From Escherichia virus TH58: a stretch of DNA of 64,000 bases. The notes beneath the pieces were generated by a model, which was given only the letters and a program-made list of their open reading frames with translations, had not been told where the DNA came from and made no database searches. Each line of letters begins with the position of its first letter. Position 1 is the stretch's first letter. Where the stretch lies: sequence record MT446423.1. One strand, 5' to 3'. Below, in pieces: positions 1,251 to 39,277 of the stretch. The position numbers and the translations under genes are program-made.

Positions 1251-1724
1251 ATGTTATTATCAGGCGCAAAATATAAAGAAGAAAAACAAAAATTTTATGA
1301 TGCACAGAATGGTAAGTGTCCTATTTGCCACCGTGAATTAGACCCTGATGTTCAAGGTAACCATCTTGACCACGACCACGAATTAAACGGGCCAAAAGCA
1401 GGTAGAGTTCGTGGGTTACTCTGTAATCTGTGCAACGCAGCAGAAGGTCAAATGAAGCATAAGTTCAACCGTTCCGGTCTTAAAGGACGTGATGTTGACT
1501 ACCTCGAATGGCTTGAAGCTCTTCTTGCTTATTTGAAACAAGATTATTCTGATAATAATATCCATCCTAATTTTGTTCCAGACAAAACTAAAGAGTTCTC
1601 AAGACTAGGTAAAGAGGAAATGATGGCTGAGATGCTTCAAAGAGGATTTGAATATAATGAATCTGATACCAAAACACAATTAATAGCTTCATTCAAAAAG
1701 CAGCTTAGAAAGAGTTTAAAATGA
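1251..1724 (+). CDS. 49: endonuclease VII (Holliday-junction resolvase), gene 49
   Basis: 157 aa; CPICHRE..HLDHDH..CNLCN zinc/His motifs; matches T4 endo VII as remembered; adjacent to nrdD as in T4. Confidence 0.88.
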   Translation: MLLSGAKYKEEKQKFYDAQNGKCPICHRELDPDVQGNHLDHDHELNGPKAGRVRGLLCNLCNAAEGQMKHKFNRSGLKGRDVDYLEWLEALLAYLKQDYSDNNIHPNFVPDKTKEFSRLGKEEMMAEMLQRGFEYNESDTKTQLIASFKKQLRKSLK

Positions 1725-2258
1725 AAATTGAAAAAGAAATTGAAGGATTAATTCATAAAACTAATAAAGATCTTTTGAACGAGAATGCTAATAAAGATTC
1801 TCGTGTTTTTCCAACTCAACGGGACCTTATGGCTGGTATTGTGTCTAAGCACATTGCTAGAAATATGGTCCCGTCTTTTATTATGAAAGCACATGAAAGC
1901 GGAATTATCCATTTCCATGATATTGATTATTCCCCTGCTCTTCCGTTTACTAATTGCTGTTTAGTAGATTTAAAAGGAATGCTTGAGAATGGATTTAAAT
2001 TAGGCAATGCTCAAATTGAAACGCCTAAATCTATTGGCGTTGCTACTGCAATTATGGCACAAATTACTGCACAAGTTGCTTCACATCAGTACGGCGGAAC
2101 GACTTTTGCTAATGTAGATAAAGTACTTTCTCCTTATGTTAAACGCACCTATGCAAAACATATTGAGGATGCAGAAAAATGGCAAATCGCTGATGCGTTG
2201 AATTATGCCCAATCTAAAACAGAAAAAGACGTATACGATGCATTCCAAGCTTATGAGT
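1721..2258 (+). CDS. nrdD: anaerobic ribonucleotide reductase NrdD, exon 1
   Basis: N-terminal NrdD sequence; reading frame hits TAA 2264-2266 just inside a group I intron; 5' splice site placed after U2258 by P1 pairing (exon AUGAGU with intron GCUCAU at about 2272-2277). Confidence 0.85.
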
Positions 2259-36092: not shown

Positions 36093-36268
36093 ACAAGATA
36101 GTTAAATGGTTTAAAAGCTGGAATGATGGAGTCGGTCCGGAAGATTGGCTGGATGTTCTTGAAGAGAATATGGCTAAAGAATTCCAGAAACACGAAGAGA
36201 AGCTCGTCGAAGATGAAGGCGAACGTATTGTAAAACTTTATATGGGTGAACCATCGAGGAAATTATAA
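36089..36268 (+). CDS. hypothetical protein (59 aa)
   Basis: Internal ATG of track ORF 36062-36268. Confidence 0.4.
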   Translation: MNKIVKWFKSWNDGVGPEDWLDVLEENMAKEFQKHEEKLVEDEGERIVKLYMGEPSRKL

Positions 36269-36732
36269 TGGATGCTATGTTATTTAAAATGTATTTGCTT
36301 GAAGCCAAGTCGTTTAAACATATACCAGTAGAAGATAAGACTCCACTGGAAATAGCTATTCTCATTAACAAAAGTCTAAATAACCCGCAATATATCGTAG
36401 AAGAATTCTGCAAATTGCAGATTCCTAAAGGTTACAAAATTCGTGTAGAGCGAGTTGGAGCTATTACTCGTTCTAAAAATTCTCCGTTTAGTCTTGAAGA
36501 AGGCATAAAGGACTTAGGTTATGAATCTACGGAAAATGCCGTTTATGTGAATCCTGAAAAGCGTTTAGACTTGTTTGAAAAGCGAGACCATAAGTATTTT
36601 GCCAAAAAATACTTTATTACATCATTAGCAGATTTAACCCATTTGCAACGAGCTATTTGGAAATTTTTTAAGACAAAAGGTGTAGCACTAGAAACATTCT
36701 CTGAACCTGCTAGTTTTTATCTCGGTGAATAA
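36268..36732 (+). CDS. hypothetical protein (154 aa)
   Basis: Track ORF, TAATG overlap with upstream ORF. Confidence 0.55.
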   Translation: MDAMLFKMYLLEAKSFKHIPVEDKTPLEIAILINKSLNNPQYIVEEFCKLQIPKGYKIRVERVGAITRSKNSPFSLEEGIKDLGYESTENAVYVNPEKRLDLFEKRDHKYFAKKYFITSLADLTHLQRAIWKFFKTKGVALETFSEPASFYLGE

Positions 36733-36733
36733 T

Positions 36734-36913
36734 ATGGACTTGATGAGTATGTTTGATGAGCCCGAAGTTGAGGCTCCTAAAGTGCATCGTAGTGAACTTG
36801 TTGATGAACTAGATAGTATTATAAAACGACACGGCTTTAGTTTACCTGTCGAAGCCCTGAAAGATCTTGCCTCTTATTATGACGACCCTCCACCATGGAG
36901 TCCTTGGAAATGA
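36734..36913 (+). CDS. hypothetical acidic protein (59 aa)
   Basis: First ATG of track ORF 36725-36913. Confidence 0.4.
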   Translation: MDLMSMFDEPEVEAPKVHRSELVDELDSIIKRHGFSLPVEALKDLASYYDDPPPWSPWK

Positions 36914-37074
36914 AAGAGAAATTTAAAGAGAAATTCTTACTAGAAATCAAGGAAAAAGACTTTGAGACATGGTATCGAATGGTGAAAGGGTTGACATTGC
37001 TTTTTAAAGCATCATTATTCATGCTAGAACAACCTGGACCTGACGGACCTTTAGTAGGAAAGCTTAAAAAGTAG
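36910..37074 (+). CDS. small hypothetical protein (54 aa)
   Basis: ORF below track cutoff; ATGA overlap with upstream stop. Confidence 0.3.
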   Translation: MKEKFKEKFLLEIKEKDFETWYRMVKGLTLLFKASLFMLEQPGPDGPLVGKLKK

Positions 37075-37102
37075 TTTACATTCCCTCCTCTCGTGTTATG
37101 AT
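37074..37102 (+). promoter_or_regulatory. early promoter (-35 GTTTAC, -10 TATGAT)
   Basis: GTTTAC, 17-nt spacer, TATGAT. Confidence 0.5.
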
Positions 37103-37129
37103 AGGCTTATCTTTAAATGGAGGTCTATC

Positions 37130-37711
37130 ATGACATGTCAATCTGAACTTCAAGAACGTGAATACCTAACAAATCTGATTGATAGCAAATTCACCCGCCA
37201 AGAACAAAACATTCTCTGGGCTTGCACTGATTCTAAGGAAGACCCGGATTTCCACTATGAATTAGACCATCTTGTTCGTAAGCATATGACTTCTACAGTA
37301 CCAGTAGAACTCTACCGTGGTGTAACTCCAGAAGAAGTAGAACGTCTTTCCCTTCTTTCTGTTGGATGTCATTGGTCTCCTGGACGAGTAACATCGTTCA
37401 CAACTGATTTCAGTACAGCTCGTCAATTCTCCGGGAGTTGGGAGTATCAGACGTACACTATTCTTAGTCTCAGGAATGCTCCATTCATTTTTGATTACTA
37501 CCAAAACATGATTAACATTGTACTTGCCGGAAAGAACCCTAAGCATGTTATGGAAGAAAAACGTGTTGACGTCCTAGATATGATTGAATCTGAACAAGAG
37601 TACATGGTCTCAGGTATCTCTAGATTTGAGATTGTGGAAATTGAAGACTTAGAATATGACCCTTTATCTCGATTATACAAAATCATTCATTTAAAAATGT
37701 TGAATTTTTAG
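37130..37711 (+). CDS. modB: ADP-ribosyltransferase, ModA/ModB family (193 aa)
   Basis: Arg (ELYRGV), Ser-rich segment (TSFTT) and EQE (ExE) catalytic motif; paralog of next gene; symbol assigned only from T4 gene order. Confidence 0.55.
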   Translation: MTCQSELQEREYLTNLIDSKFTRQEQNILWACTDSKEDPDFHYELDHLVRKHMTSTVPVELYRGVTPEEVERLSLLSVGCHWSPGRVTSFTTDFSTARQFSGSWEYQTYTILSLRNAPFIFDYYQNMINIVLAGKNPKHVMEEKRVDVLDMIESEQEYMVSGISRFEIVEIEDLEYDPLSRLYKIIHLKMLNF

Positions 37712-37740
37712 TGTACAAACTCTTCCGACGATGATACTAT
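37711..37740 (+). promoter_or_regulatory. early promoter (-35 GTGTAC, -10 TACTAT)
   Basis: GTGTAC, 18-nt spacer, TACTAT. Confidence 0.4.
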
Positions 37741-37768
37741 ACTTTTATCAACCACAGGAGAAACCTAA

Positions 37769-38377
37769 ATGTTTATGCCGTATAACGAGTGTGAAATTGA
37801 AGAAATGGTTCGTCGTGCTCAATGCCCGGATTATCAAGATATGCTTCAGTACAAAATCGATGAGCAATTCAGCGACATTGAACAAAGTGTACTATGGCAG
37901 TGTATGGAAAACAAGCCAGACAGCATCCAACAAGATTTAAGTGCAATTGTTCGTAGAAATTGGTCTTCTTCAGTTCCTGAGACAATGTATCGTGGAATCT
38001 CTAAGAAAACTATGGCCACACTTGATGATAAAGGCATAGGTAGTATTATTAAATTTGACAGAGTAATGAGCTTTAGTCCGGTGTTCGGTGTAGCACGTAA
38101 CTTCGCTTCATATAATTTTTACGGAACATTTAATATGTTCTGCATCAAAGATGCACCATTTGCTTTCAACTTCCGTGAACATATGCTTAACATGATTCTG
38201 GCTGCGCCATCTTGTGAGTTCAATGGAGCTTTCCCTGAAGCGACAAGACGGTCTAATGCTAGACTTATATCTGACGAATGTGAATTTATGCTCCCTATAG
38301 GGACTACACTGCGTGTAGATTCTATTATTCAAGATGGACGTTATACAATCTGGAATCTGTCTATTATCGGTTACTGA
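37769..38377 (+). CDS. modA: ADP-ribosyltransferase, ModA/ModB family (202 aa)
   Basis: Arg (TMYRGIS), ECE (ExE) motif aligned with upstream paralog; symbol assigned only from T4 gene order. Confidence 0.55.
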   Translation: MFMPYNECEIEEMVRRAQCPDYQDMLQYKIDEQFSDIEQSVLWQCMENKPDSIQQDLSAIVRRNWSSSVPETMYRGISKKTMATLDDKGIGSIIKFDRVMSFSPVFGVARNFASYNFYGTFNMFCIKDAPFAFNFREHMLNMILAAPSCEFNGAFPEATRRSNARLISDECEFMLPIGTTLRVDSIIQDGRYTIWNLSIIGY

Positions 38378-38451
38378 CTGGATTGGAATAACCGGATGGA
38401 ACTCAGAACCATTATAACACATAAAAAATTAAAGCATTTTACGAAAAAAGT

Positions 38452-38480
38452 GTGTACACTACCTGAGGGCGTGATATTAT
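38452..38480 (+). promoter_or_regulatory. early promoter (-35 GTGTAC, -10 TATTAT)
   Basis: GTGTAC, 17-nt spacer, TATTAT then AGACCTATCA. Confidence 0.4.
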
Positions 38481-38530
38481 AGACCTATCAGCTAAATGAC
38501 CTTAACGTCCGTAAGACAGAGGAAAATATT

Positions 38531-39277
38531 ATGTTATCAAATAATAAAATTAACAAAATCAATCGTCGTCTTGACCACACCAGAGCTTCTGCGAAGAGAC
38601 GCTCTAAGGATTTTAACTTAGACTTTAATTACCTTAAAAACATTCTTGATCAAAAGGTCTGCGCTTACTCAGGTGAATCTTTCAATAACTCTGTTGAAGG
38701 TGAGAAATTATCCTTAGAACGTTTTAATAACGATATCGGCTACATTAAAGGTAATGTTATCCCAGTTAAGAAAAAATATAACACGGCTCGTTCTGATTTA
38801 ACATTAGAAGAACTTATTGAGAAACGTGATGCCATTGCAAGACGTATCGCTAATCCTTCTGCCCGTAAAGTAGAGAAACTTAATCTCGACGAGAAGAAAT
38901 GGGCCCAAATTAAAAAGGTTTATGATACTATTTTAAAAATCCGAGCAAAACGTGAAAATCGTGTTAAGCATATGGCGAACATGATGAAAAATCAACCTTT
39001 ATCTAACGAATCTAAACTTAAAATTGTTGCTTTGAAAGCACGCATTAATGGCTCACATCAAGCAGAAGGCCATGAACTTACTAAACTCAACGTTCTTCTT
39101 AAAGGCTCTGACTGGAAAACTAAAACTAAATTAACTGACGCTGAATCGCTTTTCGATACATATGATAAAGTTATCAAAGGTCTGCAACGTTTTGAAAAGA
39201 TCGGTTTCATTGGTAAATTAAAATTGAAACGTGGCTTACCACTTAGCGCATCATTATTCCAACTGATTAAAGGTTAA
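38531..39277 (+). CDS. hypothetical basic protein at the T4 srd position (248 aa)
   Basis: Track ORF between mod genes and dda; Srd assignment is by synteny and size only. Confidence 0.45.
   Translation: MLSNNKINKINRRLDHTRASAKRRSKDFNLDFNYLKNILDQKVCAYSGESFNNSVEGEKLSLERFNNDIGYIKGNVIPVKKKYNTARSDLTLEELIEKRDAIARRIANPSARKVEKLNLDEKKWAQIKKVYDTILKIRAKRENRVKHMANMMKNQPLSNESKLKIVALKARINGSHQAEGHELTKLNVLLKGSDWKTKTKLTDAESLFDTYDKVIKGLQRFEKIGFIGKLKLKRGLPLSASLFQLIKG

Follow-up and report, generated by a model that had tools for sequence, protein, structure and literature searches.

Tandem genes for probable ModB- and ModA-type ADP-ribosyltransferases in the RB69-like Escherichia virus TH58

We analyzed a 64,000-nucleotide (nt) stretch of DNA from Escherichia virus TH58 (sequence record MT446423.1; this whole stretch is called the window below) with respect to two neighboring genes that an earlier sequence-only reading had taken for paralogous Mod-type ADP-ribosyltransferases (ARTs). 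TH58 is a T-even phage of the RB69-like kind, and the pair very probably encodes its early mono-ADP-ribosyltransferases, with a ModB-type enzyme encoded by the upstream gene and a ModA-type enzyme by the downstream gene. The identification as Mod-type enzymes was supported by protein family, active-site motif, predicted fold and gene order, and turned out to be correct but ordinary. Two plus-strand open reading frames (ORFs) were found exactly where the adjacent paralogs had been proposed (Table 1), and their products shared 31% identity over 147 amino acids (aa) with E=2e-25 in BLASTP, which makes the upstream and downstream proteins paralogues.

Both proteins can be assigned by their sequence to the T4 ModA/ModB family (PHROG 832; PF26816). 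They matched the profile of PHROG 832 (RNA polymerase ADP-ribosylase) with E=4e-38 and 9e-38, and all database homologues carried the precomputed Pfam annotation PF26816. An exhaustive profile search against 1.84 billion representatives found no more than 189 relatives with E<=1e-3, of which 19 had E<=1e-30. ART domains from multi-domain proteins of very large size made up the end of the list, and we read the ModA/ModB family as a small and phage-centered one.

The closest known counterpart of the pair is that of RB69 (Mosigvirus, NC_004928 / AY303349), which showed 97.7% DNA identity to the window across the region of the pair; the window is an RB69-like Mosigvirus. The RB69 proteins were 99% identical to the upstream protein ('ModB') and 98.5% identical to the downstream protein ('ModA'), corresponding to 2 and 3 substitutions, and the RB69 genes are annotated as modB and modA, both with the product name 'RNA polymerase ADP-ribosylase'. 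Nucleotide differences from RB69 fell mostly on third codon positions (8 of 10 in the upstream and 11 of 14 in the downstream gene), and synonymous codon changes outnumbered non-synonymous ones (8 versus 2 and 11 versus 3, respectively), which indicates that both frames are under purifying selection. A megablast search with positions 36800-38700 found 162 phage records, nearly all of them Escherichia or Shigella Mosigvirus, and 131 of the 162 covered at least 80% of the query. At a DNA identity of >=95%, both ORFs were conserved in over 130 records of phages, and about 1000 phage records matched in tblastn. A Shine-Dalgarno (SD) sequence precedes each gene, namely GGAGG at 37119-37123, 6 nt 5' of the upstream ATG, and AGGAG at 37756-37760, 8 nt 5' of the downstream ATG at 37769. 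The start of the downstream gene differs from the RB69 annotation, where it corresponds to position 37775 (Met3, giving 200 aa). SD spacing favors the ATG at 37769 (8 nt versus 14 nt for 37775), and the 202-aa version is also the one called in the 298-member database cluster P0022.

Table 1. Positions in the window of the ART gene pair, its motifs and predicted promoters, and of neighboring genes.
Feature	Position	Strand	Remarks
Upstream ADP-ribosyltransferase gene	37130..37711	+	193 aa; counterpart of RB69 'modB' (NP_861709)
Downstream ADP-ribosyltransferase gene	37769..38377	+	202 aa; counterpart of RB69 'modA' (NP_861708)
Upstream motif residues	R63 (37316-37318), S89, E155 (37592-37594), E157 (37598-37600)	+	alignment with T4 ModA/ModB
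Downstream motif residues	R75 (37991-37993), S101, E170 (38276-38278), E172 (38282-38284)	+	alignment with T4 ModA/ModB
N-terminal helix motif, upstream copy	37202..37237	+	residues E25-K36; 51-sequence alignment
N-terminal helix motif, downstream copy	37880..37915	+	residues E38-K49; 51-sequence alignment
Predicted early promoter of upstream gene	37060..37109	+	RB69 Pe:13466, 22.2 bits; 1 of 50 positions differs from RB69
Predicted early promoter of downstream gene	37697..37747	+	RB69 Pe:12829, 24.1 bits; 2 of 51 positions differ from RB69
Predicted early promoter of srd (context)	38438..38487	+	TGTACA-16-TATTAT at 38453..38480; RB69 Pe:12088, 31.8 bits
modA.3-like gene	36268..36732	+	intact 154-aa ORF
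modA.2	36749..36913		small gene 5' of the pair
srd	38531..39277	+	next gene 3' of the pair
dda.1	starts 39280		gene order as in RB69 and T4
dda	starts 39588		gene order as in RB69 and T4

In a MAFFT alignment with the T4 enzymes, the active-site residues could be followed through both copies. The Arg of a (Y/W)RG motif (R63 and R75, with R72 in T4 ModA and R73 in T4 ModB), the Ser of a V-x-S-(F/A)-(S/T) motif (S89 and S101) and a Glu-x-Glu (ExE; E155/E157 and E170/E172, with E163/E165 in T4 ModA) were each aligned. The stretches EQEYM and ECEFM, which the sequence-only reading had matched to each other, indeed occupied the same columns (SEQEYM in the upstream and DECEFM in the downstream copy), together with DEQEVM of T4 ModA and REQEWM of T4 ModB. 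The alignment to T4 ModA and ModB that had been proposed as a check thus found R, S and both Glu in register in both copies. Of the claimed Arg, Ser-rich and ExE hallmarks, the Arg, the Ser and the ExE are present and aligned, but 'Ser-rich' overstated a single S-x-(S/T) motif, the equivalent of STS. In a 51-sequence family alignment that did not include T4 ModA, no variation was seen at R, G, S, F, E, E or the M behind the ExE. For the T4 enzymes, R-S-EXE has been given as the active-site motif of both ModA and ModB (PMC10468400). The exchange E165A abolished ADP-ribosylation by T4 ModA (PMC11404850), and T4 ModB with R73A,G74A showed no catalysis and a smaller burst size (PMC10468400).

Outside the R-S-ExE triad, we observed a further motif in an N-terminal helix, E-Q-x-x-L-W-x-C-x-x-x-K, of which E, Q, L, C and K were invariant in 51 of 51 family members and W was kept in at least 90%. 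In T4 ModA this motif is partly lost (EIELLIHCITNK).

AlphaFold2 models built on 51-sequence alignments reached a predicted local distance difference test score (pLDDT) of 90.0 and a predicted template modeling score (pTM) of 0.85 for the upstream protein, and a pLDDT of 94.2 and a pTM of 0.88 for the downstream protein. The full ART core was kept in both models. Its first strand carries the Arg, the core strand after that the Ser and a helix-to-strand junction the ExE, the placement of the active site being judged from secondary-structure position and fold matches. This is the known placement of Arg, Ser and ExE in C3-type and iota-type enzymes. Absence of the catalytic Glu pair from a structure-based comparison had been named as evidence that would count against the sequence-only reading; the pair is present in both models, as its ExE lies at the helix-to-strand junction in the arrangement of C3-type and iota-type enzymes. 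In the upstream model, the region just before the ExE (residues 131-150) was shorter and modeled with lower confidence, at a pLDDT of 75-80. As modeled, both proteins belong to the R-S-E (cholera-toxin-like) ART superfamily, with R predicted on beta-1, S-x-S on beta-2 and ExE at the junction of the ARTT loop and beta-5. The H-Y-E (diphtheria-toxin/PARP-like) class was rejected, since neither a His-Tyr-Glu triad nor a closest fold match among diphtheria toxin and PARP enzymes was found.

The solved R-S-E (ARTC) enzymes used for comparison were Vis (4xzj), the C3 exoenzymes (1ojz, 1r45), iota-like CPILE-a (5gtt), VIP2 (1qs1), Tre1 (6drh), HopU1 (3u0j), ExoS (6gn0) and ART2.2 (1gxy). They were 10-21% identical to the phage pair, with no significant match at the sequence level. 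The phage enzymes differ from them in being small, intracellular proteins made in the infected cell without secretion or translocation domains, and in having a family-specific N-terminal helical region. Profile matches to XopAI and Vis (E 0.14-1) were not significant on their own, and nucleophosmin, Cas9 and ArdA, which came up as possible PDB relatives at E 0.01-0.15, were dismissed as noise.

An early-promoter-like site precedes each of the two genes. In RB69, the early promoters Pe:13466, Pe:12829 and Pe:12088 were predicted with a phage-specific hidden Markov model (Nolan et al. 2006), and these three predictions map directly 5' of each ART gene and of srd, with 1-4 differences each from RB69. 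The site of the upstream gene comprises an A-rich UP-like run, a -35 element TTTACA at 37075-37080, a 16-nt spacer with TG and a -10 element TATGAT at 37097-37102, amounting to 10 of 12 consensus matches plus the TG in a generic sigma-70 scan. The promoter predicted for the downstream gene (-35 TGTACA at 37712-37717, 17-nt spacer, -10 TACTAT at 37735-37740) lies partly within the final codons of the upstream gene. The generic scan also picked up the site 5' of srd at 38453..38480; overall, its promoter-like sites were no commoner in the region than in shuffled sequence. The pattern T[TG]TAC[AT]-N15-17-TAnnnT occurred 26 times on the plus strand versus 4 times on the minus strand of the whole window, and three of its four plus-strand matches between 35 and 40 kb were the two ART promoters and the srd promoter. 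This strand bias fits a window of mostly early genes transcribed on the plus strand. Dhakavirus LHE83 (TTTACA..TACTAT) and Gaprivervirus TH54 (TGTACA..TAATAT) have the inter-genic site at the corresponding position too, with differing spacers, and T4 has an equivalent GTTTAC...TATGAT site 5' of modB. A separate early promoter for each gene, as put forward by the sequence-only reading, is therefore a reasonable interpretation of what are predicted sites, both lying within promoters already in print as predictions for RB69. The predicted srd promoter marks the 3' boundary of the transcription units of the pair.

The assignment of the upstream copy as ModB and of the downstream copy as ModA follows gene order, and orthology is argued here from position, not from sequence. 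T4 modA adjoins srd on its 5' side, as the downstream copy does. T4 ModA (NP_049635, 200 aa) has the R-S-ExE residues (R72, E163, E165) and is 30% identical to the downstream and 24% to the upstream copy, and it differs in having WRG (not YRG), SAS (not SF(S/T)) and a diverged N-terminal motif. T4 ModB (NP_049636, 207 aa) is 33-34% identical to the two copies in a trimmed alignment and resembles the pair of the window in its R-S-ExE, similar length, N-terminal EQxxLWxC, location 5' of a second ART gene and early promoter upstream. A 10-residue block, EQSVLWQCME, is identical in the downstream copy and T4 ModB and diverged in T4 ModA. The genes modB and modA overlap by 4 nt in T4, which indicates that they share one promoter there, whereas the TH58 genes are separated by a 57-nt gap with its own promoter-like site. 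In BLASTP, the only T4 match of the upstream protein was ModB (37.5% identity, E=9e-27, 90.5 bits), while the downstream protein matched both ModB (E=7e-34, 109 bits) and ModA (E=1e-20, 74 bits) and was the best match of T4 ModA within the pair. The downstream model superposed equally well on a T4-type ModA model, with a template modeling (TM) score of 0.86-0.87, and on a ModB-labelled protein, with 0.85 (Foldseek). A neighbor-joining (NJ) tree of 16 family proteins from 11 genera recovered, at 100% bootstrap, one clade of upstream copies from Mosigvirus and Dhakavirus and one of downstream copies from Mosigvirus, Dhakavirus and Gaprivervirus; we did not rely on an isolated '100%' node that enclosed nested nodes of low support.

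In T4, ModA modifies Arg265 of both alpha subunits of RNA polymerase (RNAP), while the targets of ModB are S1, EF-Tu, trigger factor and L2 (PMC2988021, PMC3014915, PMC10468400). T4 ModB also RNAylates S1 and L2 with NAD-capped RNA (PMC10468400). By analogy and gene order, we propose the following for TH58. Host sigma-70 RNA polymerase would probably transcribe each gene from its own early promoter in the first minutes of infection. Each product folds, as modeled, into an ART domain of the R-S-E class preceded by a bundle of N-terminal helices. As in the family, NAD+ would be held by R63/R75 and S89/S101. E157/E172, the second Glu of the ExE, would catalyze the transfer of ADP-ribose to arginine side chains on host proteins, and specificity for arginine would come from the first Glu. 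The downstream copy would most likely complete ADP-ribosylation of Arg265 on both RNAP alpha subunits. The upstream copy would most likely modify S1, EF-Tu and trigger factor, and it may also use NAD-capped RNA ('RNAylation').

Several observations weigh against this picture. Both copies scored higher against T4 ModB than against T4 ModA in BLASTP, and the upstream protein gave no match to T4 ModA at E<=10. Identity to the T4 enzymes was just 24-34% in the trimmed alignment, and the deep nodes of the NJ tree leading to T4 ModA and ModB had bootstrap values of 2.5-33%, all below 35%. Given the ModB-favoring scores, the missing ModA match and the low bootstrap values, the assignment of targets to each copy depends on position. 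A literature search found no experimental paper, biochemical or on transcripts, on RB69-type enzymes. The inter-genic promoter site stayed below the threshold of the generic sigma-70 scan, by whose consensus its -10 element TACTAT is weak. No significant relative turned up among PDB sequences with phmmer or profile searches, a Pfam-A scan gave no relevant match (only a sub-threshold MukF_M) and an NCBIfam scan no matching model. The Pfam-A and NCBIfam blanks reflect the content of the libraries and not the proteins, because PF26816 was present only in precomputed annotations.

It is possible, though on balance unlikely, that both proteins are active ARTs of the ModA/ModB family whose host targets are divided otherwise than in T4, so that the RB69 names are positional labels. 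Both copies might then be ModB-like enzymes acting on translation factors or in RNAylation, or the upstream copy might act on RNAP alpha in place of the downstream one. T4 ModB as the best T4 match of both proteins (90.5 and 109 bits), the EQSVLWQCME block shared by the downstream copy and T4 ModB with T4 ModA diverged, and an NJ tree that joined neither copy to T4 ModA or ModB with support would all agree with such a division, as would the upstream copy of Gaprivervirus, which showed 28-29% identity to the upstream copies of Mosigvirus and Dhakavirus and suggests turnover in the upstream ART slot. However, the genes are ordered as in T4, T4 ModA found its best match in the downstream copy (74 bits) and the upstream copy its only T4 match in ModB, and the downstream model superposed on T4-type ModA at the TM scores given above. 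The simplest history would be one duplication in the coliphage lineage followed by faster divergence of T4 ModA, which also speaks against a different division. A bolder version, which we consider quite improbable, is that the Mosigvirus pair does not correspond one-to-one to that of T4, with translation and RNAylation targets split between the copies or roles swapped, and with RNAP alpha left to Alt or to the 'wrong' copy. If true, this would mean that the duplicated ART slot was re-specialized independently in different T-even genera.

It seems very improbable to us that one copy is a paralogue without catalytic activity that persists for binding, as a pseudo-enzyme or decoy. Duplicated toxin-like enzymes sometimes lose activity, and the shorter, lower-confidence stretch before the ExE of the upstream copy might be seen in this light, but neither copy has lost R, S or either Glu, and these residues did not vary among 51 homologues. 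Moreover, purifying selection acts on both frames, and both models contain the full ART core. A reading of the ORFs or motif matches as chance features and not genes has next to no probability and was refuted by conservation (more than 130 records at >=95% DNA identity and about 1000 records in tblastn), profile E-values (about 1e-38 for PHROG), third-position bias and well-spaced SD sites; we found no point in its support.

A ModB-type and ModA-type pair is already known from RB69, where it has been annotated since 2003 and its early promoters were predicted in 2006. The T4 ModA and ModB enzymes have been studied since the 1990s, and for these reasons the pair carries little weight as a discovery. 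Its remaining value is comparative. With only 24-34% identity to the T4 enzymes and a 'ModA' that is still ModB-like, the RB69-type pair represents a natural test set for target and substrate specificity, including the question why ModB but not ModA attaches NAD-capped RNA to ribosomal proteins (cf. PMC10468400).

The neighborhood of the pair is that of RB69, with modA.2 and ORF020c on the upstream side and srd, dda.1 and dda on the downstream side, and the three early promoters predicted for RB69 are shared. The slot between the modA.2/modA.3 genes and srd, dda.1 and dda matches RB69 and T4, and the same slot was found in 9 other genera. Among the Straboviridae genera sampled, the ART slot 5' of srd was single-copy in Kanagawa-, Karam-, Jiaoda-, Mosuguk-, Teguna-, Krisch- and Gelderlandvirus, and double in Tequatro-, Mosig-, Dhaka- and Gaprivervirus. 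In Salmonella phage CGG4-1 a single ART gene is split into two coding sequences (CDS).

The modA.3 homologue of RB69 is annotated as two short CDS, RB69p023 'mrh' and RB69p022, while it is intact in the TH58 window. An A-run near window position 36435 is one A longer in the RB69 record (TTACAAAAATT versus TTAC-AAAATT), and the split reflects either an error in the record (a frameshift or sequencing error) or a true pseudogene in RB69. In several phage records, among them those of Dhakavirus LHE83 (1648..1821) and of RB69-like phages such as AV112, mogra and CAU_ECP01, modA.2 is labelled 'molybdenum ABC transporter periplasmic molybdenum-binding protein', which looks like a collision of names with bacterial ModA that was spread by automated annotation.
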